From: a virus
UHGV virus genome: UHGV-0332176
Direction: 5' to 3' (one strand)
DNA length: 64,000 nucleotides
Within the stretch, counting starts at the first letter, position 1. Every line of letters begins with the position of its first letter. The notes under the pieces are model-generated. The model searched no databases, had not been told where the DNA came from, and saw only the letters and a list, made by a program, of their open reading frames with translations. Position numbers and translations under genes: made by a program. Shown here in pieces: positions 814-55,449 of the stretch.

Positions 814-900
814 TGGTGGGCATACCGAGAGTCGAACTCGGATGAGGATACCCCCGACAGATTTTAAGTCTGTTGCGTCTACCAATTCCGCCATACGCCC
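814..900 (-). tRNA. tRNA-Leu (anticodon TAA), type II with long variable arm, CCA encoded
   Basis: Reverse complement folds as a cloverleaf: acceptor GGGCGTA..., D-arm with GG, anticodon stem-loop ACAGA-CTTAAAA-TCTGT (anticodon UAA), long variable arm CGGGGGTATCCTCATCCG, T-arm GAGTTCGACTCTC, 3' ...CCCACCA. Confidence 0.8.
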
Positions 901-1713: not shown

Positions 1714-2550
1714 TTATTTGTCAACAATTTTTTCTTCCGTTTTTTTATTCCATAAACCTTTTGCTTTTCTTTCTGCAAACGTTTCTTTAACAAAATGTTT
1801 AGAAATTTCATTTTCATAAATTTCTTTTTCTTGTTCATAATTATTAATTCTTTCATTTGCCATATCAATATATTCTTGTGAATTATCAATACCAATATAA
1901 TTATGATTAAGAAATTTACAAGCTATCGCTGTTGTTCCTGAACCTATATATGGGTCAATAATTAATTTATTTGTTTCATTATCCAGTATAGAATATATGC
2001 ATCTTAATGGAATTTGTAATGGAAAAGGTGCAGGATGATTTGACTTTTTTTCTGGTGATATTTCCCATACTGATGTTAGTAATGAATGTTTTGATTTCAT
2101 TTCTGAACCAATTAAATTATTATTAATTGGTTTATATAGCCAATAAATTCGTTCTTCTATTTGCCAAAATCTATAACCTCTAATATTAGATGCTATTTTT
2201 CTATTCCAAATAATTTCTTGTCGTATTGTCCAATCAGTTTTTCTTAACCAATCCATTGGATGAATCATATACCCTTTATCCCATCTTAATTTATGATTAT
2301 AAAAAAATGAACCGCCAGGTTTTATTATTCTATATAATTCATTTAATACTTTAATTTGTAATTCTTGATAATTATTTTCAGGCATTGAATCATTATAAGA
2401 ATTGTATTGAACATCTTTAACTAACCAACCTTTATTTTTTTTCCCAAACTTATTATAAGGCGGAGAAGTTATACCCATATCTACACTATTAGAATCAAAT
2501 TGTTTTAATGTTTCTAATGTATCACCAAAATATATTTTATTTACATTCAC
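1714..2550 (-). CDS. DNA amino-methyltransferase, beta-class (motif IV SPPY before motif I DPYIGSGTT); likely N4-cytosine (or N6-adenine) MTase
   Basis: DMGITSPPYNK near N-terminus and FxGSGTT AdoMet motif near C-terminus; the order IV->I marks the beta class; SPPY is typical of N4C enzymes. Confidence 0.85.
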   Translation of the reverse strand: MNVNKIYFGDTLETLKQFDSNSVDMGITSPPYNKFGKKNKGWLVKDVQYNSYNDSMPENNYQELQIKVLNELYRIIKPGGSFFYNHKLRWDKGYMIHPMDWLRKTDWTIRQEIIWNRKIASNIRGYRFWQIEERIYWLYKPINNNLIGSEMKSKHSLLTSVWEISPEKKSNHPAPFPLQIPLRCIYSILDNETNKLIIDPYIGSGTTAIACKFLNHNYIGIDNSQEYIDMANERINNYEQEKEIYENEISKHFVKETFAERKAKGLWNKKTEEKIVDK

Positions 2551-3172
2551 TTAAAAGCCTTTCATATAAATCTTTAACAATATAAGATTTATAATATTCT
2601 AATTTAGTTTTTGATGCAATATAAATTAATTCTGCATCATCAATATAAGATTTATAATTAAATTGTAAACTTCGTAAATAATGATTTGGCTTTCTTGGTA
2701 AATGTGAATCACCAAAATAATTATATAACTTATTATAAAAATGTGTTTTTAATTTTGGAGAATCATACTTTATTTTAAAAATATAAATTAATTTTCCATC
2801 TATAAAACCACCTATTAATAATGTTGGATTTTCTTTTAAATGCTTATGGTATCTATCCCAAGTATAATCACTATAAGAACCAGACCCATTTAATTTTTCA
2901 GGTTTTTGCTTGGAAGTATCACAATTACTTAATTTAACTTCACAAAATCCTTCTTCATTTTGTCCATCATATCCTAATTTAGATAATAATGGTTGATAAT
3001 TACATTCATATAAAATAGTTCTTTCACGAGCAGTAGATGAATTTTTATCATTAATAAATTGCTTTATTAATTGTATAATAATTTCTTTATTATTTTCTTT
3101 ATTTAATGTTTGATTAAATTCTTGAATTTTATCAGTTGAATAAAAATATATTAATTTATCTATGATATTCAT
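2537..3172 (-). CDS. Hypothetical protein co-oriented with and overlapping the MTase start by 14 nt; candidate cognate restriction endonuclease (alternatively a small KxNG nucleotidyltransferase)
   Basis: 211 aa. Possible PD-(D/E)xK-like YDGQNEEGFCEVK segment and a KLNG motif. Operon-like overlap with the MTase. No recognisable family. Confidence 0.35.
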   Translation of the reverse strand: MNIIDKLIYFYSTDKIQEFNQTLNKENNKEIIIQLIKQFINDKNSSTARERTILYECNYQPLLSKLGYDGQNEEGFCEVKLSNCDTSKQKPEKLNGSGSYSDYTWDRYHKHLKENPTLLIGGFIDGKLIYIFKIKYDSPKLKTHFYNKLYNYFGDSHLPRKPNHYLRSLQFNYKSYIDDAELIYIASKTKLEYYKSYIVKDLYERLLSECK

Positions 3173-3202: not shown

Positions 3203-3289
3203 TGGAAGTCTGGACGAGATTCGAACTCGCATCATCTTTTCAGATATACGGTTTTGCAGACCGCTGTATAGCCATTCTACCACCAGACT
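3203..3289 (-). tRNA. tRNA with anticodon GCA (Cys) and U73 discriminator but type-II architecture (17-nt variable arm), CCA encoded
   Basis: RC: AGTCTGG/CCAGACT acceptor, GG in D-loop, anticodon stem-loop GCGGT-CTGCAAA-ACCGT, variable arm ATATCTGAAAAGATGAT, T-arm GCGAG-TTCGAAT-CTCGT, then U-CCA. Confidence 0.6.
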
Positions 3290-3296
3290 TATAAAA

Positions 3297-3371
3297 TGGT
3301 ACGGTAAGTGAGAATCGAACTCACATATTCAGCTTGGAAGGCTGACGTAATAGCCATTATACCATTACCGC
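3297..3371 (-). tRNA. tRNA-Gly (anticodon TCC)
   Basis: RC: GCGGTAA...TTACCGT acceptor (G1-U72 wobble), anticodon stem-loop TCAGC-CTTCCAA-GCTGA, T-arm GTGAG-TTCGATT-CTCAC, ACCA end. Confidence 0.75.
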
Positions 3372-3376
3372 ATTAA

Positions 3377-3451
3377 TGGAGCGACTTGCGAGAATCGAAC
3401 TCACATCTAAACCTTGGCAAGGTCTTGTATTAACCATTATACGAAAGTCGC
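3377..3451 (-). tRNA. tRNA-Gly (anticodon GCC)
   Basis: RC: perfect acceptor GCGACTT/AAGTCGC, D-stem GTAT/ATAC, anticodon stem-loop AGACC-TTGCCAA-GGTTT, T-loop TTCGATT, U73-CCA. Confidence 0.75.
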
Positions 3452-3457
3452 AAATAT

Positions 3458-3531
3458 TGGCAGGAGCATAGGGATTTGAACCCCAACAGACAGTTTTGGA
3501 GACTGTAATGCTACCGTTACATCATACTCCT
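3458..3531 (-). tRNA. tRNA-Trp (anticodon CCA)
   Basis: RC: AGGAGTA/TGCTCCT acceptor, U8, D-stem ATGT/GCAT, anticodon stem-loop ACAGT-CTCCAAA-ACTGT, T-loop TTCAAAT, G73-CCA. Confidence 0.75.
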
Positions 3532-3541
3532 TTAATAATTT

Positions 3542-3549
3542 TATTTATT
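3542..3549 (-). promoter_or_regulatory. Late-type promoter core AATAAATA (minus strand), 10 nt upstream of the tRNA-Trp 5' end; same spacing and flanks as the tRNA-Leu promoter
   Basis: Plus tatttatt; conserved 20-nt context tttaataattttatttat shared with 901-918. Confidence 0.4.
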
Positions 3550-3561
3550 ATAATAATATTT

Positions 3562-4098
3562 TTATTTAATAATATCAATATATTTTTTATTAATTTCTTT
3601 AACAAGCCAAACGTTATTATCAGAAATATAAAATTCAATACCATCAGCTAACATTTGTTTAGCATCAATAGATAAAATAATTGTTTTACCTTTTCTTCTA
3701 TCACCAACTTTTTTAGCTGTTTCAATATCATTTGATAAATGAACATATTGCCTTTTCATAGGTAATAATCCTTTTTTCATAATTGAAGGAATATTACTTT
3801 CTTGTGTTCCGTGATATAAAATAATTGGTGGGATAGATTTCTTAAAATGTATATCTACATCTTTTGTTGTATGTCCTTGATTAGCTCTAATTTTTGTACC
3901 ATCTTCTGATATAGAAAATCGTTTCTTATCATTTGTATCAACAATTTCTTTAATTATATCATAAGATAATTTCATTTCAGAATTATCAATAATATATTGT
4001 ATATCTCCCCATCCTTCTTTATCTAATTTCAATTTAATAATTTCTGGTTTATGGCGTAGAATATAACTCAAATACTTACTAATTTCTATATTATTCAT
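3562..4098 (-). CDS. kptA: RNA 2'-phosphotransferase Tpt1/KptA
   Basis: Near-colinear match to E. coli KptA: SKYLSYILRHKPE, DKKRFS, IRANQGHTT, LYHGT, YVHLS, TAKKVG.RR.G, NNVWL. Confidence 0.9.
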   Translation of the reverse strand: MNNIEISKYLSYILRHKPEIIKLKLDKEGWGDIQYIIDNSEMKLSYDIIKEIVDTNDKKRFSISEDGTKIRANQGHTTKDVDIHFKKSIPPIILYHGTQESNIPSIMKKGLLPMKRQYVHLSNDIETAKKVGDRRKGKTIILSIDAKQMLADGIEFYISDNNVWLVKEINKKYIDIIK

Positions 4099-4114
4099 AA
4101 TATATACCTATAAA

Positions 4115-4155
4115 AAAAATAATGAGTGATTCCTAAATAGTTAGGATTAAATCTG
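4115..4155. terminator. Compound stem-loop between convergent/tandem minus-strand genes
   Basis: tgagtga...tcactca outer stem with inner tcctaa/ttagga stem. Confidence 0.3.
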
Positions 4156-4174
4156 TCACTCACAGATTATAATA

Positions 4175-4414
4175 TTATTTTACACCAACAACTTCACGAT
4201 AATCTACAATGTCAGCGTCTTTAACATTTGGTACTTCATTATCTGTATAAATAGTTGCTTCTAGTAATGGACCAAAATTATTAGTATGAGCATTATAATA
4301 TGCAGAATATGCAATACCTTTTTTCTTCAATACAAGCATTGTTTTAGGACGTGTCCAATCAGCATTGCTTTTACCAATTTCACTCAATAATTTTTCTTTT
4401 ACTTCTTCAGTCAT
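4175..4414 (-). CDS. Hypothetical protein (79 aa)
   Basis: Intact ORF in tight minus-strand gene array. Confidence 0.55.
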   Translation of the reverse strand: MTEEVKEKLLSEIGKSNADWTRPKTMLVLKKKGIAYSAYYNAHTNNFGPLLEATIYTDNEVPNVKDADIVDYREVVGVK

Positions 4415-5442: not shown

Positions 5443-5830
5443 TTTCTTTACCTTTCTTTTTCAAAGTTGCACATTTCATAAATTCTTCATAAGTTGAATT
5501 CAATTTACCATTATAAAATTTTCGTGCCACATAATCAGATGTAAATGGTGATTTAAAAATACTTTTAAATACATCTTTAATCTGATTCAATGTTTCAGGA
5601 AAACCTACCATTATAACAGATGGAATAAACATCAAAGTCACCCATAATAGTAATAATGGTGTATACCAATGCTCAATTTCTAAATGTTCATCTTTTACAT
5701 AATAACGGTATTTTATCATACCATATCTAAATTTCCTTAAAGGAAATAATTTTTTATGGTCTTTCATTGATAAAGAATATTCATCATATCCTTTTTCTAA
5801 TAACGGAATATACTTATATTCTTTACCCAT
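5435..5830 (-). CDS. Hypothetical membrane protein (131 aa)
   Basis: TM segment WYTPLLLLWVTLMFIPSVIMVGF; 8-nt overlap with the next gene. Confidence 0.55.
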   Translation of the reverse strand: MGKEYKYIPLLEKGYDEYSLSMKDHKKLFPLRKFRYGMIKYRYYVKDEHLEIEHWYTPLLLLWVTLMFIPSVIMVGFPETLNQIKDVFKSIFKSPFTSDYVARKFYNGKLNSTYEEFMKCATLKKKGKENV

Positions 5831-5832
5831 TT

Positions 5833-6063
5833 TTAATTTCCTTCTTTTTTGTCAAGTGTAAAATATCTCTTTAAATCAAATCCTTTTAGAGATGGCATAT
5901 AATAACCATCTTTACCAGTATTTTTTACTCGGTATGTATTACCAGAAACGTCTTGCATCCATATACTTTTTTCAGTTACTTTAGTGACTGTTCTGGTGCT
6001 TATTACTCTATCAGACCAATCGTGATGACTTGAAAATGTATCTCCAACTTTAACTTCAACCAT
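5833..6063 (-). CDS. Hypothetical protein (76 aa)
   Basis: Intact ORF. Confidence 0.5.
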   Translation of the reverse strand: MVEVKVGDTFSSHHDWSDRVISTRTVTKVTEKSIWMQDVSGNTYRVKNTGKDGYYMPSLKGFDLKRYFTLDKKEGN

Positions 6064-6147
6064 TTTAATTTCCTTTCATTAAAAATATCATCATTTGATA
6101 TTGGTACTATAACATACAAAAATAACTTGTCAAGAACTTTTTTTAAT

Positions 6148-6681
6148 TTATTTTATATTTAATTTTTCTTTTATTTCTTCCCACGACCAAGGTTCATAAT
6201 TATGTGTATCAACCCCAATATCCATACAATTGATATTTTGATGTGGCATTAATTTCGTAAAATCAGCTAAATTAAATTTTCCGTGAGTATGACCATACAA
6301 ATGAATTGACCCGTGCCAAGCACAATCCCATTCTGCTATTGGATAATGAGATAATATAATTCTATTGTCATCAATAATAATTCGTTTATATGGAACAATT
6401 TCTGCCCATACATTTGATAATTGATGTGGTATAAGTTTATCGTGATTACCAATTATTAAATATTTAATACCATTCATTTTAGAAAATGTTTGTTGGATTT
6501 TATCAGAATTCCAACCCCAACAAACGTCTCCTAAAACATATATAATATCATTTACACCAACTTTTTTATTCCAACGCTTAATAATTTCTTCATTCATTTG
6601 CTGAACAGATGCAAATGGTCTATTTGAATGTCGTATACTATTTGTATGGTCTAAATGTAAATCACTTGTAAAAAATATCAT
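6148..6681 (-). CDS. Calcineurin-like metallophosphoesterase (binuclear-metal phosphatase); candidate RNA end-healing phosphatase
   Basis: Motifs SDLHLDH, GDVCWGW, GNHD, GHTHG. Start chosen at MIFFTSDLH (ATG 6681), giving a TAAAATG stop/start junction with the upstream gene; the ORF-track start at 6744 would overlap that gene by 62 nt. Confidence 0.8.
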   Translation of the reverse strand: MIFFTSDLHLDHTNSIRHSNRPFASVQQMNEEIIKRWNKKVGVNDIIYVLGDVCWGWNSDKIQQTFSKMNGIKYLIIGNHDKLIPHQLSNVWAEIVPYKRIIIDDNRIILSHYPIAEWDCAWHGSIHLYGHTHGKFNLADFTKLMPHQNINCMDIGVDTHNYEPWSWEEIKEKLNIK

Positions 6682-6682
6682 T

Positions 6683-7492
6683 TTATTCATCACCATACAT
6701 AATTGGTTCAGCATCATAAAAATAAGTTTCAACCTTATTTTCAACTTTTTTCATAATTGGTAATTGTAATTCTTGAACTTCACTACGCATTACCATATTA
6801 TTTTCAGGTCTTTTATCAGTAGGTATTTTAGATAATGTTTCTTCATCAAGAACTTTCATTACATTAACTCTTTTGAAATAAGACCCTCTTTTAAGAAATG
6901 GTTTAATATCATTAAAATTAATACCTTTTTCTTGAAATAGCATTTCATTCATTTCTGCTGTTGATTTACCTTGTAATTCTTTATGACTAAAATTTGCTTG
7001 TGCAACCATACTAACAGCATTTCGTGCAGCATCATTTTCTCGCCATACAAAAGCATTAGCTAATTCTATCATATTTGGTAATTGAAAGACACGACAATCA
7101 AAATTTGGTTTAAGATTTTCAACTTTTTCTTTTAATTTCGGATATTTCATACAATTTAAAACAAAAGATACAGTTGCCATTGATGCAAGAACAGATGTTA
7201 ATTTAAATAATCTTCCATCAAACGGTGCTTTACTCATATCTTCCCAAGCTAATGAAATTTCATCTGACTGAACATATCCAAGTTTTGCATTTGTCTGTTT
7301 TACTAAATCTTGACAAACCTCTCTCATAACTGCAACAAATTCCATATCAAATGGTTTATCTAATCCACGACAAAAAGTATGAAAAGCACGACCATCTAAT
7401 CTAACATATACAGGTAATCTTGGCATTAACATTGTTGATGTTGTTAATGCTTCATAAGTTTTCATACGGTCTCCCAAATTATCATTTATCAT
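6683..7492 (-). CDS. Thg1-like protein (tRNA-His guanylyltransferase family, 3'-5' nucleotidyltransferase)
   Basis: PVYVRLDGRAFHTF (Thg1 RxDGRxFHxF motif), VQSDEISLAW (GQSDEYSF), RLFKLTSVLASMATVSFV. Start placed at internal ATG 7492 (RBS AAGGA); 7465 (RBS GGGAGA) is also possible. The 7594 start in the ORF track would overlap the upstream gene by 100 nt. Confidence 0.8.
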   Translation of the reverse strand: MINDNLGDRMKTYEALTTSTMLMPRLPVYVRLDGRAFHTFCRGLDKPFDMEFVAVMREVCQDLVKQTNAKLGYVQSDEISLAWEDMSKAPFDGRLFKLTSVLASMATVSFVLNCMKYPKLKEKVENLKPNFDCRVFQLPNMIELANAFVWRENDAARNAVSMVAQANFSHKELQGKSTAEMNEMLFQEKGINFNDIKPFLKRGSYFKRVNVMKVLDEETLSKIPTDKRPENNMVMRSEVQELQLPIMKKVENKVETYFYDAEPIMYGDE

Positions 7493-7493
7493 T

Positions 7494-7844
7494 TTAATAT
7501 CCTTTAAATTTACTACAAAAACAAATCCGTTTTTTTCTTCTTTTTTCTCTTTTAAACATTGCAAAATCAATTCTTTTACAAATTGTATTTTCAAATATGT
7601 AATTTTCTAATTCAGTTAAAAAACTGTTATATAAATCATAATTCCAAATTTTACCTTTATATGGTTTTATCATATTTTTAATATGTGCCATTTGTTCTAC
7701 AGAAAAGTAATTTAGTCTAATATATAAACAAGTATTTTTCCATATTCTTAAAGATAAACAAGGTATATTATATGGAAACATTGTATTTGTTAATTTATTA
7801 ATATACCTATCACAAACAAAATTAACTTTTTTCTTATTTCTCAA
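7494..7844 (-). CDS. Hypothetical protein
   Basis: ORF immediately upstream of the Thg1-like gene; several possible internal starts. Confidence 0.4.
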   Translation of the reverse strand: MRNKKKVNFVCDRYINKLTNTMFPYNIPCLSLRIWKNTCLYIRLNYFSVEQMAHIKNMIKPYKGKIWNYDLYNSFLTELENYIFENTICKRIDFAMFKREKRRKKRICFCSKFKGY

Positions 7845-7853
7845 TTAAACTTC

Positions 7854-8012
7854 TCCGTTTATTTCTTTACATTCATATAATTTTAAAGTTAATTCTTTGT
7901 TTTCAAACATTTTCTTTGCTGTTTGAAATTCCTCTACTGAATCACAAGATAAAACTTCAGTATTTATATTACCAACATCATCTCTCATAATCATTTCAAT
8001 AACATATTTCAT
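7854..8012 (-). CDS. Small hypothetical protein (52 aa; MKYVIEMIMRDD...), not in the ORF track (<60 aa)
   Basis: Strong RBS GGAGGAGA; ATG overlaps the stop of the upstream gene (TGATG coupling). Confidence 0.45.
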
Positions 8013-8239
8013 CAGTTTATCTCCTCTCTAAGAGTTTTATTATATTTTGAAGCATTTTTTAAAACTTTATTAAATGTTTCAACTTCAACTTCACCTGTTT
8101 CAGGATTTAAATATTCCGAATAAGTTAAATCACATTTATCGTGATAACTTACATCAAGAATTAAAAGTTGTTTTTTTCCTTCTGTTATTAAACCACTTTC
8201 ACCAGCAGAAACACTATCAATTTTTATAAAGTATCTCAT
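8012..8239 (-). CDS. Hypothetical protein (75 aa)
   Basis: Intact ORF, translationally coupled to the downstream small gene. Confidence 0.5.
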   Translation of the reverse strand: MRYFIKIDSVSAGESGLITEGKKQLLILDVSYHDKCDLTYSEYLNPETGEVEVETFNKVLKNASKYNKTLREEIN

Positions 8240-8248
8240 AAAAACTCC

Positions 8249-8536
8249 TTAATTTGTTTTATAACGACAAGAACCAACTTCATAACCTTTTTCTTTTAAA
8301 AGATTATTAAAATTCCATTGATTTGTACCACCAGTATAATCTTTACGATGTTCAGCAGTCCGATACATAATAAACATTGAATGATTTAATGGACAACTTC
8401 TAACATCAGCAGTAGAAATATAATACAATTGTCCATTCCAATTAAAAAAACCAGAACAATAGTAATAATTGGCGTGCAATTCAATATCTGTTCCACCAAG
8501 AATCTCAATTGCTTTTTTTAAAGATACTTTTTTCAT
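8249..8536 (-). CDS. Hypothetical protein (95 aa)
   Basis: Intact ORF preceded by a sigma70-like promoter. Confidence 0.55.
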   Translation of the reverse strand: MKKVSLKKAIEILGGTDIELHANYYYCSGFFNWNGQLYYISTADVRSCPLNHSMFIMYRTAEHRKDYTGGTNQWNFNNLLKEKGYEVGSCRYKTN

Positions 8537-8572
8537 TGTTATAATCTTTCATTATTTGTTATTGATAAAGTT

Positions 8573-8600
8573 AATATAACATAGAAGAATTATTTGTCAA
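8573..8600 (-). promoter_or_regulatory. Sigma70-like promoter TTGACA-N16-TATATT (minus strand)
   Basis: Plus-strand tgtcaa at 8595-8600 and aatata at 8573-8578; one of many recurrent ATTTGTCAA (minus-strand TTGACAAAT) sites. Confidence 0.45.
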
Positions 8601-8612
8601 TAGAAAAAAATA

Positions 8613-8643
8613 AAAAATCCAAGAATTTTTCTTGGATTTTTAT
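8613..8643. terminator. Rho-independent terminator hairpin (aaaaatccaagaa/ttcttggattttt)
   Basis: Perfect inverted repeat flanked by A/T runs, downstream of the 8660..8959 gene. Confidence 0.6.
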
Positions 8644-8659
8644 AAAATATATTAATTTT

Positions 8660-8959
8660 TTATTTTGTTGGCTTAACTTTTGCATATGAAATAATTCTAA
8701 ATGGATTTTTAAGATACCAATCACGATTAAATTTATGTTTAATAGCGTGATAAAATTTTCCTTTTGATGGTGATTTAATCCATTCAAGATAATCGTGTCT
8801 TGTTAAACCTCTAACGATATATGTTTTTGGATTTTTTTTAACTTTGAAGGTAATTATTTCTTCACCAGGAAAATAACGATTTCTACGTCCATAATAAGAT
8901 ACATCTTGTAACCAAGATGAATTAACTAATTTTTCTTGTAATAATGTACTTATTTTCAT
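8660..8959 (-). CDS. Hypothetical basic protein (99 aa) immediately downstream of the tail fibre gene
   Basis: Intact ORF starting 13 nt after the tail fibre stop. Confidence 0.55.
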   Translation of the reverse strand: MKISTLLQEKLVNSSWLQDVSYYGRRNRYFPGEEIITFKVKKNPKTYIVRGLTRHDYLEWIKSPSKGKFYHAIKHKFNRDWYLKNPFRIISYAKVKPTK

Positions 8960-8971
8960 AAAAATCCTTAA

Positions 8972-11900
8972 TTATTCAATAATAATATTATTTTTTCCAC
9001 GTAAATAATCAATAGTTATCAAAATTGTTCCTGCTGTTGAAACTTGAATAACAGGTAAAGAACCTGCGTCATTTCCAACAGGAATAAATTTTGTAATTAA
9101 CTGCATATTTTCATCTAACAATTCCAAATATAATGTATAATCTGAAAAATTATATTCTAATGTATAATCAGAATCATCATCAATAATTTCAAAAGTTGTT
9201 GGGTCAACTTTCTGTAAATCTCTTTCAAAATTAAATACATATTCAAAACCTGTTTCAGGAATTACCATCCAATATGAAGGATTAAATAATTCGTGAGCAT
9301 CATTTGAAGTATGTGCTTGTTTACATTGATAATATCTATCTTGATAAGCAACTTTATCATCAACTTGATATTGAGTTGCTGTTACCCAATTTTGATAATA
9401 ACTTGAATTAATATCACGTTTAGTAACGTCTAATATATTTCTATTAAATAATAGGCGAGCTGAATCTTCATTATTACTTGCTACAATAGAAATATATTTA
9501 ATATCTTTTAAATCAACCGTTAAACCAGTATCTGAATCTTTACCTTGTTTATAAACATCTTCCCACATAGAAATTTTACCAGTACGTCCTGCATCTTCAT
9601 CAAATGATGTTGATGAAGTATGTGCTTGACTACACATATAATAATATGTTGATGTTACTCCATCATATTCTTCATCGTGTTTTATAATATCACCAACTGC
9701 ATAATATAAATTTGGTTCCCAAGTTAAAGTATTTTCATTAATTTTATTAACTATTGAATAAAATGGTCGTCTAATATTAAATGATAATTGTTTTAAATTT
9801 ACGAAATCTCCATAAATTCCTTTATCAAAAAAGATAATAGGGATTCTTGTTTTCATAATTGTTTGAATAGCTTGATAATCAATACCAACACGATTTTCTG
9901 TTGATGCTAATTTATTAACATATTCAACGTTTGGAATAGCATCATTATCTGAAGCAATTCTTTCGGCATATGATAAATTAGTGTGTGTAGAATCATCAAT
10001 AACTAAATAATTATCACGAGTTGTTTGAAATGTGATTTTTTGACCACTTTCATAGCTACGAATAACATTACCATTTAAGTCCAGAGCTTTATTTAATAAA
10101 ACAGATGGAGTATAATAATTTACTAATTGCCAATATTCAGCATTATTTGTGGTAATATCAGTTGATGAAGTGTGTTCTTTTAAACAAATATAAATATTAT
10201 AACCAATTTCAAAAGGTATTTGAACATAATCATTAACATTATATGTTACACCAACTTCCCAAGTTGAATAAGATGCATTATTTCCACCAAGTTCTAAATG
10301 TCCATAAAAACCAGAACCTAATTCAACATCTCCTGTTAAATTTGTACCACTTATTGTAACTTTATTATTATTAGAAGCATCTCCTTGTTCAATTGTAATA
10401 CCATTAGTTAATGGACGAACAACTTCTTTTCCATCAATAATTTCAGTATTATATAATCCTTTAACTAAATCATCCCCATTTGGAGTAGCTAAATAATCTA
10501 AAAATACCCATTTTGGTTGATAAAAATCAAATTGATAGATTCTTTTGGAACTCATTTCAGGGTCTAATGTGTCAATATTATTTAATGTTGAATTATTTGT
10601 AAAACGAGTAGCAATTGTATTACTTTCTGTAACGTTTTTATCAAATAAAGAATTAATAAATGTTAAATATTCAGTTCTTTCGCTTAAAGTAATAATAGAT
10701 TTTCCTAATGAACAATTACTAAATCTATTTCCAATAAATGAACCATTTGAAGTTTTATTATTTTCATTATAAGAAGTTATATTAATTGCTTGATTTGTAA
10801 TATCTTTAAATAAGCAATTATTAAATAAAAACCAACTTAAATTATTTGAAATATTTACACCATTTCTAGCATTTTCAAAAATGCAATTAAAGAAATGTAC
10901 ATAAGAAGAATCTTGTAAACCTTGTGATTTAAAAATATTAACTAATGTTGAACCATTACCATTTTGTATATCAGAATAACCAATGAATTTAACATTTCTA
11001 AACCAAACATCATATGTTGAACCTAACAATAAAACAGTTTCTAATGTACTTTCAGACACATCAAAAGTCATATCTTCAACAATAATATTGTGTGCAATTT
11101 CTCCATTAACACCATATTTGTTTGTTGATGATAAATCACTTAAAACATAATTACTATCTAATGTTGTTAATAAAACATTCAAACCATTTTCATAACTATT
11201 TGTTTTAATAATAGTTCTATCAATTCCTTCACCTTTTAAATGAATACCAGTTGGTAATGCTAATGGTTTAGAATTAATAATATATTCACCAGCAGGAACT
11301 AACATTGTTTTGAAGCAATCAGGTTTATTATCTGCACAATAAACAGTTAATATAGCATTATAAAAAGCATCTGAATCATCAGTTGTTCCATCGCCCAATA
11401 CACCAAAATTTTTAACTGAACAATAATCATCTAAAACTTCTTGAATTGTTCTATCAGAAGGTGGTGTAGCATTTTCTGTATAACTTGGTTCAGTTGTAAT
11501 ACCAATAATATCAAGAATTCCACCTTGTTCTTGACCTTCACCATTTTCTAAAACAAGTGTTTCTCCATTGCTAATAATTTGAATTTTTCCACCTTCAACA
11601 ACTTGTGCTTTAACACCTAAATTTAAAGAATTTATTTTATCACAAAATCCTTGAGCATCTGTTTCTTTATCAAATGTAATTGTTTGACCATTTATAACAA
11701 TTGTTGTTCCAGCTGGAATAGATGGATACAATTTGGAACCTGTTACAATTATAGGTAATTTACTACCATTACCATTTGAATAAACATATTTAATCATATC
11801 CAAATTATCACTAAATTCAGTTAAAACCTGAATATTACCATATGGAAATGTATTAGATTGAATTCTTTCTTTTAATTTTGGATTATTTGGATTACCAATA

Positions 11901-12016
11901 AACAAACTATTAGTATCAGTTGCTAAACCAAATTCACCTTCGTGTAAATCTGTTAATTCACTTTGATTACCACGTCTATGTTGTATTAATGCAATTTGTT
12001 TTGTATTTTTTGCCAT
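8972..12016 (-). CDS. Tail fibre / tailspike protein with right-handed parallel beta-helix (pectate-lyase-like fold)
   Basis: 1014 aa. Conserved phage-fibre N-terminal motif IALIQHRRGNQSELTDLHEGEFGLATDTNSLFIGN. Repeated N-x-C rung motifs (FNCIFENA, NNCLFKD, SNCSLGK) and Asn/Gly/Thr-rich C-terminal half. Confidence 0.7.
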   Translation of the reverse strand: MAKNTKQIALIQHRRGNQSELTDLHEGEFGLATDTNSLFIGNPNNPKLKERIQSNTFPYGNIQVLTEFSDNLDMIKYVYSNGNGSKLPIIVTGSKLYPSIPAGTTIVINGQTITFDKETDAQGFCDKINSLNLGVKAQVVEGGKIQIISNGETLVLENGEGQEQGGILDIIGITTEPSYTENATPPSDRTIQEVLDDYCSVKNFGVLGDGTTDDSDAFYNAILTVYCADNKPDCFKTMLVPAGEYIINSKPLALPTGIHLKGEGIDRTIIKTNSYENGLNVLLTTLDSNYVLSDLSSTNKYGVNGEIAHNIIVEDMTFDVSESTLETVLLLGSTYDVWFRNVKFIGYSDIQNGNGSTLVNIFKSQGLQDSSYVHFFNCIFENARNGVNISNNLSWFLFNNCLFKDITNQAINITSYNENNKTSNGSFIGNRFSNCSLGKSIITLSERTEYLTFINSLFDKNVTESNTIATRFTNNSTLNNIDTLDPEMSSKRIYQFDFYQPKWVFLDYLATPNGDDLVKGLYNTEIIDGKEVVRPLTNGITIEQGDASNNNKVTISGTNLTGDVELGSGFYGHLELGGNNASYSTWEVGVTYNVNDYVQIPFEIGYNIYICLKEHTSSTDITTNNAEYWQLVNYYTPSVLLNKALDLNGNVIRSYESGQKITFQTTRDNYLVIDDSTHTNLSYAERIASDNDAIPNVEYVNKLASTENRVGIDYQAIQTIMKTRIPIIFFDKGIYGDFVNLKQLSFNIRRPFYSIVNKINENTLTWEPNLYYAVGDIIKHDEEYDGVTSTYYYMCSQAHTSSTSFDEDAGRTGKISMWEDVYKQGKDSDTGLTVDLKDIKYISIVASNNEDSARLLFNRNILDVTKRDINSSYYQNWVTATQYQVDDKVAYQDRYYQCKQAHTSNDAHELFNPSYWMVIPETGFEYVFNFERDLQKVDPTTFEIIDDDSDYTLEYNFSDYTLYLELLDENMQLITKFIPVGNDAGSLPVIQVSTAGTILITIDYLRGKNNIIIE

Positions 12017-12118: not shown

Positions 12119-12715
12119 TTAAGTTAAATCAATCCCTAATTCTTTGGCTTTATTTAGTAATTGAACTCTATTATAACATTTCATTCTTTTTAAAATATTT
12201 GTTATATGAACTTTAACAGTAGATTCTGAAATATTCAATTCATATGCTATCTGTTTATTAGATAAACCTTTATTGATTAATTTAATAACATCAATCTGCT
12301 TATTTGTTACAATTTTCTTAAATGAATTAATTACTAAATTATTTGGAAAGTATGTTTCATTTAATAAAATCAAATTAATAATGTTAAAAATTTTATCATT
12401 GGAATACTTTTTAGAAATATATCCAGCAACATTATATCTCATATAATTAACTATATCAGTTGAAATATATTCTGATGTTAAAATAATTAATTTACCATTT
12501 AAATTTTGTTTTTGAAAAAATGATAAAATAGTTAAAATATCAATTTTTGGAGTTTTTGTAATAAAAATCAAATCATATTGGTTAGATAGAATATTATTTT
12601 TGATATTATTATAATCACAGCAAGCATTAATTTCACAATTTTCATCAATATGTGTTAATAATTCTTTTAATCCTGTAATATACAGTTCTTCATCATCTAT
12701 TATAAGTATTTTCAT
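12119..12715 (-). CDS. LuxR/FixJ-family transcriptional regulator with degenerate receiver domain (pseudo-response regulator)
   Basis: C-terminal HTH LSNKQIAYELNISESTVKVHITNILKRMK closely matches NarL/LuxR. N-terminal receiver-like MKILIIDDEE, but the phospho-acceptor position reads DLIFITK (Thr where Asp is expected). Confidence 0.8.
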   Translation of the reverse strand: MKILIIDDEELYITGLKELLTHIDENCEINACCDYNNIKNNILSNQYDLIFITKTPKIDILTILSFFQKQNLNGKLIILTSEYISTDIVNYMRYNVAGYISKKYSNDKIFNIINLILLNETYFPNNLVINSFKKIVTNKQIDVIKLINKGLSNKQIAYELNISESTVKVHITNILKRMKCYNRVQLLNKAKELGIDLT

Positions 12716-18169: not shown

Positions 18170-19807
18170 TTACATATTAGGTGTATTTTGTCTTATTGCT
18201 GACATTAACTTTAAATTAGTTTCAGTATCATCAATAATTAATCCTTCAACCGTTAATAATGAACCTGCAATTGAAGACCCATTTTCCAAAGCACAACGAA
18301 CAACTTTGGTTGCATCTAAAATACCTGCATCAACTAAATTACAGAATTTATCGCATTTAGCATCATATCCCCAAGAATAATCATCATTATCTAATACTTT
18401 TTCAACAATGACTTCACCAGATTTTCCAGCATTTTCTGCAATTTTTTTCATTGGAGCACTTAAAGATTTTAATACAATTTCATATCCAACATTTTCATCA
18501 TCTGTTATAACAATATTATTTAATTCCTTAATAAGGTCTTTTTGTGCTCTTACTAATGATACTCCACCACCAGGTAAAATACCTTCTTCTAATGCTGCTC
18601 TCGTTGCACAAACGGCATCATCAACACGGTCTTTCTTTTCTTTAACTTCTGTTTCAGTTGCTCCACCAACTTTAATAACAGCAACACCGCCAATTAATTT
18701 AGCAAGTCTTTCACGAAGTTTTTCTTTATCATATGATGAATCAGTATTTTCAATTTCTTCAGAAATTTGTTTTGCTCTTTCATCAATAGCTTCTTTACTT
18801 CCGTGTCCACCAATAATAATTGTTTCAGTTGGTGTAATTCTAATTTTATCGCAAGAACCCAAATCATCAATAGTTACTTTTTCTAATTGAGCACCAAATT
18901 GAGTTGAAATAAAATTACCACCTGTTAAAATTGCAATATCTTCCATTTGAAATCTACGAATATCACCAAATGAAGGAGCTTTAACAGCACAAACTTTTAA
19001 TCCTGCTTTAATTCTATTAATAACCAATGCTGATAATGGGTCATCTGCCATTTCATCGGCAATCATAATTAATGGACGACCAATTTCCATAACATTTTCT
19101 AACAAAGGAATAATAGATTGAAGATTGTTAATTTTACCATCATATAAGAAAATATATGGATTATCATACTCAACTAATTGTCTTTCTGGATTAGTCATAA
19201 AATATGGTGAAAGATAACCTTGGTCAAATTGTAAACCATCAACAATTTCTAATTCTGTCTTTAATCCCTTTGCTTCTTCAACAGTAACTACACCTTTTTC
19301 ACCAACAACTTCAATTGCTTTAGCAATAAAATCACCAATTTCTGTATCACCATTTGCAGAAATAGTTGCCAATTGACGAATTTCTTCATTTGTTGTTACT
19401 TTTTTTGAATGTGATTTTAATGATTCAACTACAACCTTAACTGCATTTGAAATACCTTTTTGAATTTCAGTAGATTTACGACCTTTAGAAATTGACTTTA
19501 AACCTTCTTCAGCAATTGTAGATGCAATTATACAAGTTGCTGTTGTACCATCACCTGCATCTCTACCAGTTTTTTCAGATGCTTGAATAATCATTTTTGC
19601 ACCTTCACCTTCAGAGTCCATTAGTGTAACAGATTTTGCAACAGTTACACCATCTTTTGTAACTTTTGGTGAACCCCAAGATTGTTGAATAGCAATTGTT
19701 CTACCAGCAGGACCAGCAGTAGCAGAAACAACATCTGCAACTGTTTTCATACCAGAATATAACGTACTACGAGCTTCATCACCTTTAATTACTTTTTTAA
19801 TTGTCAT
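18170..19807 (-). CDS. groEL: Chaperonin GroEL (Cpn60) homologue, no C-terminal GGM repeats
   Basis: 545 aa. N-terminus MTIKKVIKGDEAR; AVKAPSFGDIRRFQMEDIAILTGG; GGGVSLVRA. Ends ...RQNTPNM. RBS AAGGAGA. Confidence 0.93.
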   Translation of the reverse strand: MTIKKVIKGDEARSTLYSGMKTVADVVSATAGPAGRTIAIQQSWGSPKVTKDGVTVAKSVTLMDSEGEGAKMIIQASEKTGRDAGDGTTATCIIASTIAEEGLKSISKGRKSTEIQKGISNAVKVVVESLKSHSKKVTTNEEIRQLATISANGDTEIGDFIAKAIEVVGEKGVVTVEEAKGLKTELEIVDGLQFDQGYLSPYFMTNPERQLVEYDNPYIFLYDGKINNLQSIIPLLENVMEIGRPLIMIADEMADDPLSALVINRIKAGLKVCAVKAPSFGDIRRFQMEDIAILTGGNFISTQFGAQLEKVTIDDLGSCDKIRITPTETIIIGGHGSKEAIDERAKQISEEIENTDSSYDKEKLRERLAKLIGGVAVIKVGGATETEVKEKKDRVDDAVCATRAALEEGILPGGGVSLVRAQKDLIKELNNIVITDDENVGYEIVLKSLSAPMKKIAENAGKSGEVIVEKVLDNDDYSWGYDAKCDKFCNLVDAGILDATKVVRCALENGSSIAGSLLTVEGLIIDDTETNLKLMSAIRQNTPNM

Positions 19808-19879
19808 AATTATTTTTTCTCCTTAACTTAAATTTATTTTTAATAATAACAAAAATTTTATAATTTTACAAAAATAATT

Positions 19880-20182
19880 TTAATGTATAATACCTAAAAT
19901 ATCTGTTTCTCTTAAAATTGTTTTTTCTTCATCGTTTAATTTAATAATTTGACCTGCAAATTTTCCAAATAAAACTCTATCTCCAACTTTAACTGTCATT
20001 GGTTGAATTTTTCCTGTTTCTTCATTATATAAACCATTTCCACACGCAATTACAACACCTGTTGATGGTTTTTCTTTTGCATTATCAGGAATAATAATTC
20101 CGCCGTTAGAAACACTTTTTTCTTCATCTTTTTCAATAACAACGAAATTAAATAAAGGTTGAATTTCTAATTTTTTTTCCAT
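19880..20182 (-). CDS. groES: Co-chaperonin GroES (Cpn10) homologue
   Basis: LEIQPLFNFVVIEK...GGIIIPDNAKEKPSTGVVIACGNG...VGDRVLFGKFAG...ILGI. Start placed at the second ATG (20182), which has RBS GGAG; the ATG at 20194 abuts the terminator U-tract. Confidence 0.88.
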   Translation of the reverse strand: MEKKLEIQPLFNFVVIEKDEEKSVSNGGIIIPDNAKEKPSTGVVIACGNGLYNEETGKIQPMTVKVGDRVLFGKFAGQIIKLNDEEKTILRETDILGIIH

Positions 20183-20198
20183 TTTTTTCTCCATAAAA

Positions 20199-33848: not shown

Positions 33849-36377
33849 ATGAAATTAGAACATATTATCACAGAAAACTTTCAAACTGTTTCAATAAATG
33901 GTATTCTTTATTCATTAAATACAGATGAAAAAGCAATTTATGATAAAATTAAAAATAATGAAAATAAAAAATTATTTAAAAAAGATTTAGATGAATTTAA
34001 TCAACGTATTGCTTCTGGATTAGTTACAAAAGGGATTTTACAAAGAAGAAAAAATCCTCAACACGAAATTTATTTTACAACTCGTGGAAGAAGAAAAAAT
34101 GCTGTTTATAATAGACCATTAGATGAAGTTGCTCCACCTGATACTGCAAGTGAAAAATGGATTAATAAAAATAAAGATAAATTTAAAGAAAAATATGGTA
34201 AAGATTATAAAAAATATTTATATGGCAAGGCTTGGAATATGTATAATGGTTCAACCATTAAAGAAACTTATGAATTACAAGCTATTTTAGACCGTTATAC
34301 ACTTATGGAAGCAACAACAGCTTATCACGGCTCACCTTATGATTTTGATGAATTTAATGTTAAATTTATTGGTAAAGGTGAAGGACATCAAGTTCACGGT
34401 TGGGGATTATATTTCGCAGAAGATATGAATACATCTAATTCATATTATAGAGATATGGGAAAAATTGATGCTATTAAATCTTTTACTTTAAATGGTAAAA
34501 GTTATGCAAAAGGTACTGTAATGTATAAAATATTATCTCTTATCTCACAAACAGGTAAAAAGAAATATGCTGTTGATAAATTAAATGAAATATTAAATAA
34601 TAAAGAATGGATTGATGCTCATCCAGATTATAAAACTAAAATTAAAGATTTAATTAAATTTATTCGTGGCATTAAGCAAAATGATTTAAAAGCCAATATT
34701 TCTATGAAAACTGGACAATTATTTACAGTTGAATTACCAGATAAGCAATACTATTTAGATGAAGATTTGCCTTTTGATAAACAATCACCAAATGTTCAAA
34801 AAGCAATTACAAATATATATAAATCTAATTCTAAATTTGATTTTTCATATTTAAAAAAATCCTCTTATACTGGTGACCAAATTTACAAATATATGTCTAA
34901 TGTATTGGGGGGGGATAAAAACGCTTCTTTGGCATTATATAACGAAAAAGTTCCAGGCATTCGTTATGATGGTTATCGTGATAATTTTTGCTTCGTAATA
35001 TTTAATGGCAAAGATGTTAAAATTGTTAATAAAGAAATTAATATATCTGATAATCTTTTATTACCAGAAAAAGAAATGATTGATGATGACCCATTTTTAA
35101 TTGCAAATATTGATAATCCTTCAGAAGAATTACAGTTATATGCATTAAATAGAAATTTTTCTGTATTTAAATATATTAAAAATCCAACAGAAAAAGTAAT
35201 TGAAAAAGCATTAGAATTAGATAGTAATAATTTAGTATATGTTCAAAATCCAACTTCTGAACAAATTTCTATTGCTATTAAAGATAATTATGATTTAGCA
35301 GTAGATATAGCTCCTAAATTAACTAAAGACCAAATATTTAATATTATTAAGGATGATGATACTTATTTTCCTCTTTTTTATAATAAAGTTCCAGAAATAT
35401 TTGATTTACAATTTTTTAAAAAATGCTTAAACCAAATTAACTCTTTTTCATATGATTTAAGTGAACAAATATTCCCATTAGAATATTTTGAATTAATAAT
35501 TGATAAACTTTTTGATAAAGATATTAATAATAACTTTTCATATATGGTAAAATTTGTTGAAAAAAATATTGACAATAATAATATTGATATTAATAATTTA
35601 TCAGATAAATTACGTTATATTTATATATACACAAATTATAAAAACATTACAACCTTTAAAGAAATTAAAGACCAAGATGTTCAAGCAATTATTGATTATA
35701 TAAATAACAATGGTAGTATTTATGATTATATTGTTTTAAATGAAAATCAAGCTAAATCACTTTCAATATCTATTGTTAATAAATTATTAAAATTAGTTAA
35801 AGTATTAAAAACAGATGCATCTAAGTTAAAAGCTGATTTATTTGTTCCATATTTAAATATGAAACAAATTGTTGCTTTTACTGAAGCCTATTTTTATTAT
35901 TTTCCTTCTTTTGTTTATCAATTATCTCATAATGATGAAACTAAATATATTGAATATTTAAATGAATTTTTTACTTACATTTATAATAAAGATAAAAAAA
36001 TAGTTAAGCAATTTTGTATATCAAATTCACAATGTAGAGAAATTATTAAAAATAATATATTACCAATTAAAGATAAATTAGATGCTGATGCATTACAAAA
36101 TTTTATGTCTATTATTATTTCTTTAATAACTACTGTTGCTTCAAAAACAAGAAAAGAATTAATATCTCAACTTGGGGAATTATCTTATCCACTTCAAAAA
36201 CAATTAGTTAATCAAAATATTATATATTCATTAGATATTCCAAATTTAGATAAAAGAATTCAAATGAAGTTGATTGAAAAAAATCCATTTAATATTAAAT
36301 ATATAAACAATCCGCTTCCTGAAATTGTTAAATTAGCTTATGAAAAAAATCCAGAAACTAAAAATTATATTAGATAG
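33849..36377 (+). CDS. Large hypothetical protein (842 aa) with internal ~30-aa helical repeats resembling DUF4116-type repeats
   Basis: Repeats LYALNRNFSVFKYIKNPTEKVIEKALELDSNNLVYVQNPTSEQISIAIKDNYDL and C-terminal NIKYINNPLPEIVKLAYEKNPE. Confidence 0.6.
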   Translation: MKLEHIITENFQTVSINGILYSLNTDEKAIYDKIKNNENKKLFKKDLDEFNQRIASGLVTKGILQRRKNPQHEIYFTTRGRRKNAVYNRPLDEVAPPDTASEKWINKNKDKFKEKYGKDYKKYLYGKAWNMYNGSTIKETYELQAILDRYTLMEATTAYHGSPYDFDEFNVKFIGKGEGHQVHGWGLYFAEDMNTSNSYYRDMGKIDAIKSFTLNGKSYAKGTVMYKILSLISQTGKKKYAVDKLNEILNNKEWIDAHPDYKTKIKDLIKFIRGIKQNDLKANISMKTGQLFTVELPDKQYYLDEDLPFDKQSPNVQKAITNIYKSNSKFDFSYLKKSSYTGDQIYKYMSNVLGGDKNASLALYNEKVPGIRYDGYRDNFCFVIFNGKDVKIVNKEINISDNLLLPEKEMIDDDPFLIANIDNPSEELQLYALNRNFSVFKYIKNPTEKVIEKALELDSNNLVYVQNPTSEQISIAIKDNYDLAVDIAPKLTKDQIFNIIKDDDTYFPLFYNKVPEIFDLQFFKKCLNQINSFSYDLSEQIFPLEYFELIIDKLFDKDINNNFSYMVKFVEKNIDNNNIDINNLSDKLRYIYIYTNYKNITTFKEIKDQDVQAIIDYINNNGSIYDYIVLNENQAKSLSISIVNKLLKLVKVLKTDASKLKADLFVPYLNMKQIVAFTEAYFYYFPSFVYQLSHNDETKYIEYLNEFFTYIYNKDKKIVKQFCISNSQCREIIKNNILPIKDKLDADALQNFMSIIISLITTVASKTRKELISQLGELSYPLQKQLVNQNIIYSLDIPNLDKRIQMKLIEKNPFNIKYINNPLPEIVKLAYEKNPETKNYIR

Positions 36378-37493: not shown

Positions 37494-37934
37494 ATGATGG
37501 ATTTTTCTGAAATTAAACATAAAATTTTAACTGATGACAAGATTGCATCAGCTTTTGAATATATGCTTTCTAAAATGGTTTTTGAAAACCCAATAAAACC
37601 TTTAAAATTCATATATAAAAAATGTAAAATTGTAACTGAAAGAAATAATTTATATTCAATTTATGATACAAAAACAGGAATTAAATTATATAGTAAAATT
37701 CACTTTCAAGAAGTAGCTAAATATATCGTTGATAATTTAAAAAGTTATGGTAAAGTATCATATATAATATTTTTAGAAAATGAATTATTTAGATATAAAG
37801 AAAAAATTGATTTTTTTAAAAATTATTATTTACAAAAAAAGACAGATATTTTAGAAATTAAATTATCTGCAATGTATGATTCATATTATAAAATAAAAAA
37901 TAGTTTATTAAATACTCTTAAAGAGAATACTTAA
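37494..37934 (+). CDS. Hypothetical protein (146 aa)
   Basis: Intact ORF; 3' end overlaps the convergent greA-like gene by 17 nt. Confidence 0.45.
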   Translation: MMDFSEIKHKILTDDKIASAFEYMLSKMVFENPIKPLKFIYKKCKIVTERNNLYSIYDTKTGIKLYSKIHFQEVAKYIVDNLKSYGKVSYIIFLENELFRYKEKIDFFKNYYLQKKTDILEIKLSAMYDSYYKIKNSLLNTLKENT

Positions 37935-41429: not shown

Positions 41430-41460
41430 AAAAGGTCAGGCATTGCCTGACCTTTTAAAA
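41430..41460. terminator. Bidirectional terminator (aaaaggtcaggc-attg-cctgacctttt)
   Basis: Between convergent genes. Confidence 0.7.
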
Positions 41461-55423: not shown

Positions 55424-55449
55424 AAAAAAGGAGTTTAAACTCCTTTTTT
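55424..55449. terminator. Terminator palindrome aaaaaaggagttt/aaactcctttttt downstream of the giant ORF
   Basis: Perfect 13-bp palindrome. Confidence 0.65.

Follow-up and report, generated by a model that had tools for sequence, protein, structure and literature searches.

What does an RNA 2′-phosphotransferase of the Tpt1/KptA family act on in a bacterium or, by extension, in a phage? The natural substrate of these enzymes is a long-standing open question, and it is raised again by a gene in the uncultured virus genome UHGV-0332176, of which we analysed a stretch of 64,000 nucleotides (the window). The gene occupies positions 3562..4098 on the minus strand and encodes 178 amino acids, with an ATG start and an AGG around 10 nt 5′ of it; the initial annotation had given these coordinates exactly, without the strand. 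We find a well-preserved Tpt1 directly 5′ of the phage's own tRNA genes, and we favour, with a probability of roughly 0.55, a role in the maintenance or repair of phage tRNAs, for which we infer both the substrate and the pathway.

Family membership was clear from profile searches. The protein matched the Pfam family PF01885 (PTS_2-RNA) with 171.2 bits against a gathering score of 26 (E 3e-50), nearly end to end, with residues 3–167 aligned to profile positions 3–176 of 177, and matched phrog_5470, 'RNA 2′-phosphotransferase', in PHROGs (E 7e-63). BLASTP aligned the protein directly with KptA of Escherichia coli K-12 over 174 residues, of which 44% are identical, with two small gaps (E 1e-54), bearing out the colinearity that had been proposed, and the six motifs on which that proposal rested are all present and in order: RHKP (15–18), DKKRFS (57–62), QGH (74–76), HGT (96–98), YVHLS (118–122) and NNVWL (161–165). 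The best sequence match in the PDB was Tpt1 of Runella slithyformis (7kw8; E 5.5e-48, 47% identity over 169 aligned residues), followed by that of Clostridium thermocellum (6e3a; 43% identity, E 1.1e-34). The NCBIfam PRK00819 equivalog cut-off was narrowly missed, with 227.2 bits against 239 for the best model, NF002014, and the other models further below their cut-offs; because this is a strict threshold for naming a sub-family and not a family boundary, the miss does not contradict family membership.

The active site is intact. The Arg-His-Arg-Arg tetrad, whose absence had been set beforehand as the observation that would refute the assignment, was found as R15, H16, R60 and R116, which pairwise alignments equate with R16/H17/R64/R119 of the Runella enzyme, R18/H19/R68/R121 of the C. 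thermocellum enzyme and R21/H22/R69/R125 of E. coli KptA. All four residues are invariant in an alignment of 24 homologues reaching down to 51% identity. The third arginine of the tetrad is R60 in DKKRF and not R71 of KIRANQGH, which is invariant too. By analogy with the chemistry of the orthologues, R15 and R60 would be expected to bind the phosphate that is transferred, and H16, R15 and R116 the adjacent 3′-phosphate. Residues that contact RNA or NAD+, taken from the C. thermocellum structure and an alanine scan of the Runella enzyme, are also kept (S7, K8, K58, H96, G97, T98, I106, P113 and R134/R135). Q74 corresponds to Q78 of the Runella enzyme, a position occupied by Tyr in C. thermocellum, and the differences at contact positions are N102 in place of C. 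thermocellum F107 and K136 in place of Runella H138.

The structure predicted by AlphaFold2 (mean predicted local distance difference test score 93.9, predicted template modelling (TM) score 0.82) has the two lobes of the family, an RNA lobe with a winged helix at the N terminus and, at the C terminus, an NAD+ lobe that resembles ADP-ribosyltransferases. Foldseek aligned this model to ligand-bound Tpt1/KptA structures with TM scores of 0.87–0.90 and root-mean-square deviations of 1.7–2.0 Å (0.89 and 1.9 Å for 6e3a; 0.90 and 1.7 Å for 9ld6), and every one of the top 21 PDB matches was a Tpt1, KptA or TRPT1. Profile, tetrad and fold thus agree that this is a complete Tpt1/KptA enzyme, as first annotated, with the NF002014 threshold the one miss. 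E. coli KptA and Runella Tpt1 are active, and bacterial homologues complement a yeast tpt1 deletion (PMC6097658). At 44–47% identity to active enzymes, the phage protein is almost certainly an active Tpt1 as well, predicted to remove internal 2′-phosphates in an NAD+-dependent manner.

The gene has also been under constraint. Pairwise Nei–Gojobori ratios of non-synonymous to synonymous substitution rates were 0.15–0.22 between the window gene and orthologues at 77–82% protein identity, and 0.25–0.46 against more distant viral copies; these low values indicate that it is maintained by purifying selection.

The context of the gene points to tRNA. Every gene from 8959 down to 814 lies on the minus strand, in the 5′ to 3′ order of small open reading frames (ORFs), a Thg1-like gene, a 189-residue phosphoesterase, six small ORFs, Tpt1, four tRNAs, a 211-residue ORF and a DNA methyltransferase. 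Tpt1 therefore stands, as had been noted, between tRNA genes (3203–3531, same strand) and a Thg1-like gene (6683–7492). Both ARAGORN and Rfam find the tRNA cluster, which begins only 30 nt 3′ of the stop codon of Tpt1 and shares its strand. It comprises a 74-nt tRNA-Trp(CCA) at 3458..3531 (Rfam RF00005, 56.6 bits), tRNA-Gly(GCC) at 3377..3451, tRNA-Gly(UCC) at 3297..3371 and, at 3203..3289, an 87-nt tRNA whose anticodon is GCA (Cys) and whose variable arm is long (Rfam 53.8 bits, supported by its fold); a tRNA-Leu(UAA) follows 2.3 kb 3′ of the cluster, at 814..900, again called by both programs, and all five are encoded on the minus strand. Given the 30-nt gap, the shared strand and no terminator called between them, Tpt1 is probably co-transcribed with tRNA-Trp and the tRNAs that follow it. 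A scan for sigma-70 promoter and terminator consensus sequences around Tpt1 returned 60 sites against 62 expected in shuffled sequence, and 0 terminators, a result no better than shuffles and so no guide to transcription units in a genome of 25% GC.

Upstream, the predicted Thg1-like protein (6683..7492, minus strand) has 269 residues from its ATG; an upstream TTG would extend the gene to 7594. It matched PF04446 (Thg1) with 108 bits against a cut-off of 29.2 (E 4e-31) and PF14413 (Thg1C) with 31 bits against 26.3 (E 3e-7), and its best PDB match was the Thg1-like protein of Bacillus thuringiensis (4kgk, E 5e-41), which identifies it as a Thg1-like protein of the bacterial type and a predicted 3′–5′ nucleotidyl transferase. 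Proteins of this type are described as adding nucleotides in a template-dependent manner to the 5′ ends of truncated tRNAs (PMC4820378). Overlapping the end of this gene is the start of a calcineurin-like metallophosphoesterase of 189 residues from its ATG (6148..6717, minus strand), identified by phrog_547, 'phosphoesterase' (E 8e-46), by PDB 1xm7 (E 2.8e-11) and by weak Metallophos_2 and PdeM matches; it is a candidate RNA-end or ADP-ribose-phosphate phosphoesterase. The Thg1-like gene lies 2.6 kb upstream of Tpt1.

These neighbours suggest how Tpt1 might serve the phage. Together with the phage tRNAs, the Thg1-like 3′–5′ polymerase and the calcineurin-like phosphoesterase, it could form a tRNA-maintenance toolkit that keeps translation running while the host attacks tRNAs. 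The Thg1-like polymerase would rebuild tRNA 5′ ends, and Tpt1 would clear a 2′-phosphate left at or beside the repaired break, made during healing or sealing of the cleaved tRNA. A role in RNA-end repair or modification, as the initial annotation suggested, is plausible and matches the published comparative-genomic reading of KptA and Thg1 in jumbo phages (PMC7824862, PMC9503650). In the 2021 survey by Iyer et al., KptA in a few jumbo phages may clean up 2′-phosphates left by metal-independent RNases, and Thg1, sporadic in such phages, restores tRNA 5′ ends (PMC7824862); the 2022 survey by Iyer et al. extended the same view to 21,191 viral proteomes (PMC9503650).

The core of the arrangement persists in relatives of the phage. 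We searched IMG/VR, where 336 contigs encode a Tpt1 relative, and compared the neighbourhoods of the best 80, which fall into 29 clusters at 80% identity; L numbers below denote individual viral contigs. In the sublineage at 82% identity (L005, L011 and L012) the neighbourhood is arranged as in the window. The sublineage at 79% identity (L008) retains the 79-residue ORF directly 5′ of Tpt1 (4175..4414 in the window, minus strand, no Pfam match), the calcineurin-like phosphoesterase, and the succession of Tpt1, Trp, Gly and Gly. Its other upstream genes differ: just 5′ of Tpt1 (5695–9185), the phosphoesterase is accompanied by a His_Phos_1 phosphatase and a TROVE/Ro60-like protein. There the phosphoesterase orthologue is around 0.85 kb upstream of Tpt1, and no Thg1 gene occurs at a distance of 10 kb or less. 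The Tpt1→Trp→Gly→Gly order is therefore common to L005 and L008, though their upstream contexts differ, and the 79-residue ORF holds its position in all three sublineages (L001–L008, L011 and L012; 45–100% identity by tblastn). L008 also has nine tRNA genes further upstream and an S-adenosylmethionine synthetase downstream. In some genomes a 241-residue HNH endonuclease lies directly 5′ of the Thg1-like gene (L002 5603–6328; L005 4661–5386).

Three close loci differ from the window at tRNA-Trp itself. In L001–L003, whose Tpt1 is 100% identical, around 740 extra nucleotides separate Tpt1 from the tRNAs. A homing-endonuclease intron within tRNA-Trp was considered and rejected, as these loci lack the 5′ portion of the 74-nt tRNA. 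A different, 88-nt tRNA(CCA), which shares the acceptor stem but has a long variable arm, takes its place, and an extra 229-residue Cys-rich ORF with no Pfam match precedes it (L001 10538–11380, likewise in L002 and L003, against window 3458–3561). The difference is thus a presence/absence polymorphism and not an intron.

Beyond this lineage the tRNA link fades and a possible Thg1 link appears. A tRNA lay within 10 kb of Tpt1 at 11 of the 80 loci, and within 1 kb only in the window clade and L021; adjacency to tRNA as a general property of viral Tpt1 is therefore rejected, and we regard it as specific to this lineage. A Thg1 homologue lay at most 10 kb from Tpt1 in 4 of the 29 de-replicated lineages, namely the window clade and the jumbo contigs L013 (416 kb), L015 (212 kb) and L020 (389 kb). 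Both genes are rare, Thg1 occurring in 164 and Tpt1 in 98 of 50,697 GenBank phage records, and among the matches listed only Bacillus phage G carries both, around 87 kb apart. The counts are suggestive of a recurrent close linkage of Tpt1 and Thg1 in metagenomic jumbo phages, of which L015 and L020 may not be independent instances. L015 further encodes, at most 5 kb from Tpt1, a protein that matches the RNA-repair nucleotidyltransferase family RlaP, and L025 and L033 have ORFs within 5 kb that belong to the same BLAST cluster as the L015 RlaP.

Several results weigh against a role in tRNA repair. Apart from the 11 loci above, 69 of the 80 viral Tpt1 loci have no tRNA within 10 kb; neighbourhoods across the 80 are heterogeneous, with no conserved Tpt1 operon across lineages; and the annotations within 8 kb of Tpt1 in phiCD211 and fHe-Yen9-02 list neither a tRNA nor a gene for RNA repair, and consist mostly of hypothetical proteins, so that these two neighbourhoods are uninformative. 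We also looked for partner enzymes in around 80 of the roughly 285 kb of the genome, covering some 62 window ORFs (Pfam and PHROGs), a Pfam annotation of 6.5 kb beyond the window start and 10 ORFs of a related contig. This search found no RNA ligase (Rnl1, Rnl2 or RtcB), no polynucleotide kinase or 2H/LigT cyclic phosphodiesterase, and nothing that would create an internal 2′-phosphate. A ligase, a 5′-kinase and a 2H enzyme are the partners of KptA in the heal-and-seal pathway put forward for jumbo phages, which, like a Trl1-type pathway, would leave a 2′-phosphate at the junction. None of the five tRNAs in the window has an intron by ARAGORN or Rfam. In the searchable literature we found no experimental study of any phage Tpt1, the work that our searches on phage Tpt1 and phage Thg1 brought up consisting of genome annotations and the two comparative surveys. 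The sole candidate end-healing enzyme in the searched regions is the calcineurin-like phosphoesterase at 6148–6717; the 10 ORFs beyond the window start on the related IMG/VR contig include a clamp loader and a diversity-generating retroelement, and no RNA-repair gene.

What the characterised enzymes do bears on which substrate to expect. Runella Tpt1 removes internal 2′-phosphates to completion and is inert both in capping 5′-phosphate ends with ADP-ribose and on terminal 2′- or 3′-phosphates, whereas C. thermocellum Tpt1 performs 5′-capping and terminal-phosphate removal, both slowly (PMC6573784). The authors of that study found no clear link between taxonomy and these side activities (PMC6573784), so that similarity to the Runella enzyme is only a weak prior for an internal 2′-phosphate substrate. 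This prior is among the grounds on which a role in tRNA maintenance or repair is favoured.

The first alternative is that Tpt1 acts as an NAD+-dependent end-healing phosphatase on terminal 2′- or 3′-phosphates, feeding a ligase or the Thg1-like polymerase with no 2′-phosphate junction being formed. Tpt1 enzymes of C. thermocellum, Aeropyrum pernix and Chaetomium have such activity (PMC6573784), and the jumbo-phage surveys have KptA cleaning 2′-phosphates left by metal-independent RNases (PMC7824862, PMC9503650). That the Runella enzyme is inert on terminal phosphates (PMC6573784), and that the nearby calcineurin-like phosphoesterase could do the same job, make this explanation unlikely.

Next to it stands the possibility that the protein is mainly a nucleic-acid ADP-ribosyltransferase, capping 5′-monophosphate ends of RNA or DNA and so shielding phage RNA or blocking host processing. 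Enzymes from A. pernix, C. thermocellum, Chaetomium and Thermococcus kodakarensis, and KptA of Streptomyces coelicolor, cap such ends in vitro through the same active site (PMC6573784, PMC12678800); the fold and NAD+ pocket appear intact in the predicted structure; and a weak match elsewhere in the window to ART-PolyVal, the ADP-ribosyltransferase of polyvalent proteins, hints that the phage may use ADP-ribosylation. Set against this, the best-scoring characterised relative, that of Runella, is inactive in capping, although similarity is a weak predictor here; in the enzymes that do cap, the reaction is many-fold slower than 2′-phosphate removal (PMC6573784); and no Macro or NADAR domain, which could reverse the modification, was found in the region searched. 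Because Runella Tpt1 is inactive in 5′-capping, we treat 5′-phosphate ADP-ribosylation as the weaker branch of the chemistry and consider it an improbable main function.

We give still less credence to an eraser of an internal RNA 2′-phosphate that is installed deliberately, whether as a mark set on tRNAs by a host kinase or as one by which phage or host stabilises tRNA. An archaeal precedent has been outlined, in which the kinase ArkI and KptA write and erase 2′-phosphouridine-47 in tRNA (PMC9095486, PMC12678800), the nearest enzyme to have been characterised acts strictly on internal 2′-phosphates (PMC6573784), and the phage gene is directly beside tRNA genes. The mark is, however, described for thermophiles, the window scans returned no kinase-like ORF, and the Pkinase/RIO-like gene of L020, which sits beside VWA and PP2C genes, looks like part of a protein-phosphorylation signalling set with no evidence of an RNA kinase.

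Equally improbable is that the phage gained Tpt1 by horizontal transfer as an accessory gene whose role is not specific to tRNA, acting on small molecules such as NADP(H), as has been suggested (PMC12678800), or producing ADP-ribose cyclic phosphate, its position beside tRNAs reflecting the clustering of accessory genes: the heterogeneous viral neighbourhoods would fit, and AAA_28 kinase-like, weak isochorismatase-like and CYTH neighbours could point to nucleotide or NAD+ metabolism, but linkage to Thg1 and RlaP recurs, and purifying selection together with the conserved RNA-lobe residues S7, K8, R15, H16 and R60 argues that an RNA substrate is retained. The recurrent neighbours as a whole comprise a DnaJ-domain protein, thymidylate synthase, topoisomerase IV/gyrase subunit A, AAA_28, CYTH, VWA/PP2C, RlaP and Thg1, in addition to the weak isochorismatase-like match. 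The thymidylate synthase, topoisomerase and DnaJ set recurs in the higher-GC contigs L018, L019, L022, L027 and L062, possibly members of a single related group.

Maintenance or repair of tRNA thus remains the reading that we prefer, and known systems resemble it in part. The phage and Runella enzymes have the same length (178 residues), tetrad and auxiliary residues, and both are encoded near candidate nucleic-acid repair genes; the Runella cluster, however, consists of HD-Pnk, a ligase-like protein and MTase-HIT, in contrast to the tRNAs, Thg1-like protein and calcineurin-like phosphoesterase of the phage, which has no ligase or kinase in the 80 kb searched. E. coli KptA is colinear with the phage protein and shares its essential residues (R21/H22/R69/R125 for R15/H16/R60/R116), but is chromosomal and has no known substrate in E. 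coli, whereas the phage copy has a tRNA-related context. In fungal and plant tRNA splicing, in which Trl1 ligase acts before Tpt1, NAD+-dependent removal of a junction 2′-phosphate is the step that the phage enzyme would be expected to share, by analogy; unlike those systems, the window has no tRNA intron, splicing endonuclease, Trl1-type ligase, kinase or cyclic phosphodiesterase that our scans could find. The proposed logic, in which a phage restores nuclease-damaged tRNAs, is that of T4 Pnkp–Rnl1 repair, and the virion module is T4-type as well; the T4 junction, however, is clean and does not need Tpt1, and no homologue of Pnkp, Rnl1 or Rnl2 was found in the 80 kb. Other phages also carry KptA (phrog_5470), among them Erwinia Ea35-70-like, Dickeya, Klebsiella FBKp24-like and Clostridioides phiCD211-like phages, Bacillus phage G and Yersinia fHe-Yen9-02. 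Many of the 98 GenBank records are annotated 'RNA 2′-phosphotransferase' and most are large or jumbo genomes, but the window protein is at most 44% identical to any of them.

The phage itself had been described as T4-like, which holds for its virion module, where the T4-type major capsid protein gp23, portal gp20, prohead protease gp21 and a baseplate homologue are encoded, but not for its genome, which is that of an uncultured jumbo phage of around 285 kb. The size follows from contigs with an identical or closely related Tpt1: the identical protein is indexed in 187 blocks of a metagenome assembly collection, those contigs that we read being ENA metagenome assemblies, one of 284 kb, and relatives at 74–98% identity sit on contigs of 280–290 kb. 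Judged by their sample labels, these assemblies may derive from human gut cohorts. Complete genomes of the phage are exemplified by contig k119_54750 of ENA ERZ27311596 (284,250 bp) and by IMGVR_UViG_3300045988_152025 (286,782 bp). INPHARED (50,697 GenBank phage records) held no nucleotide-level relative of the first 12 kb of the window. The window has a GC content of 25.5% and encodes, among others, a DnaB-like helicase, a primase, a GroEL (Cpn60, E 2e-70) and GroES (Cpn10, E 7e-28) pair at 18170–20194 (minus strand) and a GreA/GreB-like transcription elongation factor at 37918–38397 (minus strand).

Some features beside Tpt1 merit description in their own right. The 76-nt intergenic region 5′ of the gene (4099..4174, minus strand) contains an AT-rich hairpin, GAGUGA...UCACUC, and a U-run, ahead of the AGG around 10 nt from the ATG. 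The hairpin folds weakly (−12.7 kcal/mol, z −1.1), and the region is possibly a terminator of the upstream gene combined with the Tpt1 ribosome-binding site, a tentative reading of a weak signal. The variable arm of the tRNA with the GCA anticodon is 17 nt long (stem AUCU/AGAU), its discriminator base is U, and its CCA is encoded; the tRNA is thus class-II-shaped yet carries a Cys anticodon, which is unusual among bacteria and phages. Beyond the tRNA cluster, an N6/N4 DNA methyltransferase overlaps the 211-residue ORF (phrog_3210) at 1714–3172 (minus strand). In the 82%-identity sublineage this slot holds instead a 1342-residue DEAD/ResIII/Eco57I-type enzyme (L005 11884–15912), so that an exchangeable, restriction-modification-like cassette seems to adjoin the tRNA cluster.

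Further along the window, all on the minus strand unless stated, are a response regulator with a LuxR/GerE DNA-binding domain (12119–12715), a free-standing HNH endonuclease gene in the structural region (41455–42027), and a 2453-residue ORF with no Pfam match (55448–62809) that adjoins baseplate and tail genes. A 1014-residue tail-fibre-like protein (8972–12016) has a weak Mtd_N match in addition to pectate-lyase and CBM_5_12 matches, and on the related contig L092 (16589–19078) a protein with the second Mtd domain adjoins a reverse transcriptase (RVT_1, E 1e-15); the Mtd-domain proteins and RVT_1 suggest a diversity-generating retroelement in this phage group. Two sub-threshold matches touch on RNA and NAD+ enzymology. 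A 168-residue ORF (39099–39605) weakly matched an Rv2179c-like 3′–5′ exoribonuclease domain (E 5e-5). The ART-PolyVal match (E 1.8e-5, below the Pfam threshold) falls in an 842-residue ORF on the plus strand (33849–36377), which would be a possible second NAD+-using enzyme of this phage; an adjoining 829-residue ORF had no match.

This copy of Tpt1 alone changes no knowledge, because phage KptA is already catalogued and interpreted in the same way, as a named PHROG family annotated in GenBank phages and assigned to RNA repair in two surveys, and because the phage is uncultured. The window nevertheless provides a well-preserved Tpt1 from a lineage not represented among GenBank phage records, and adds a little to what was known: the near-abutting, probably co-transcribed arrangement of Tpt1 and tRNAs, and the recurrent proximity of Tpt1 and Thg1. 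A Tpt1 gene that is under selection, directly 5′ of the phage's own tRNAs and repeatedly found near a polymerase that repairs tRNA 5′ ends, lends circumstantial support to tRNA maintenance during infection, and its context indicates which partner genes to study jointly. It is a long shot that Tpt1, the Thg1-like protein and the phosphoesterase, placed beside phage tRNAs and associated anew in several unrelated jumbo lineages, constitute an undescribed route of tRNA repair with a 2′-phosphorylated intermediate. If they do, that route would at last provide a natural substrate for Tpt1 enzymes of the bacterial type.

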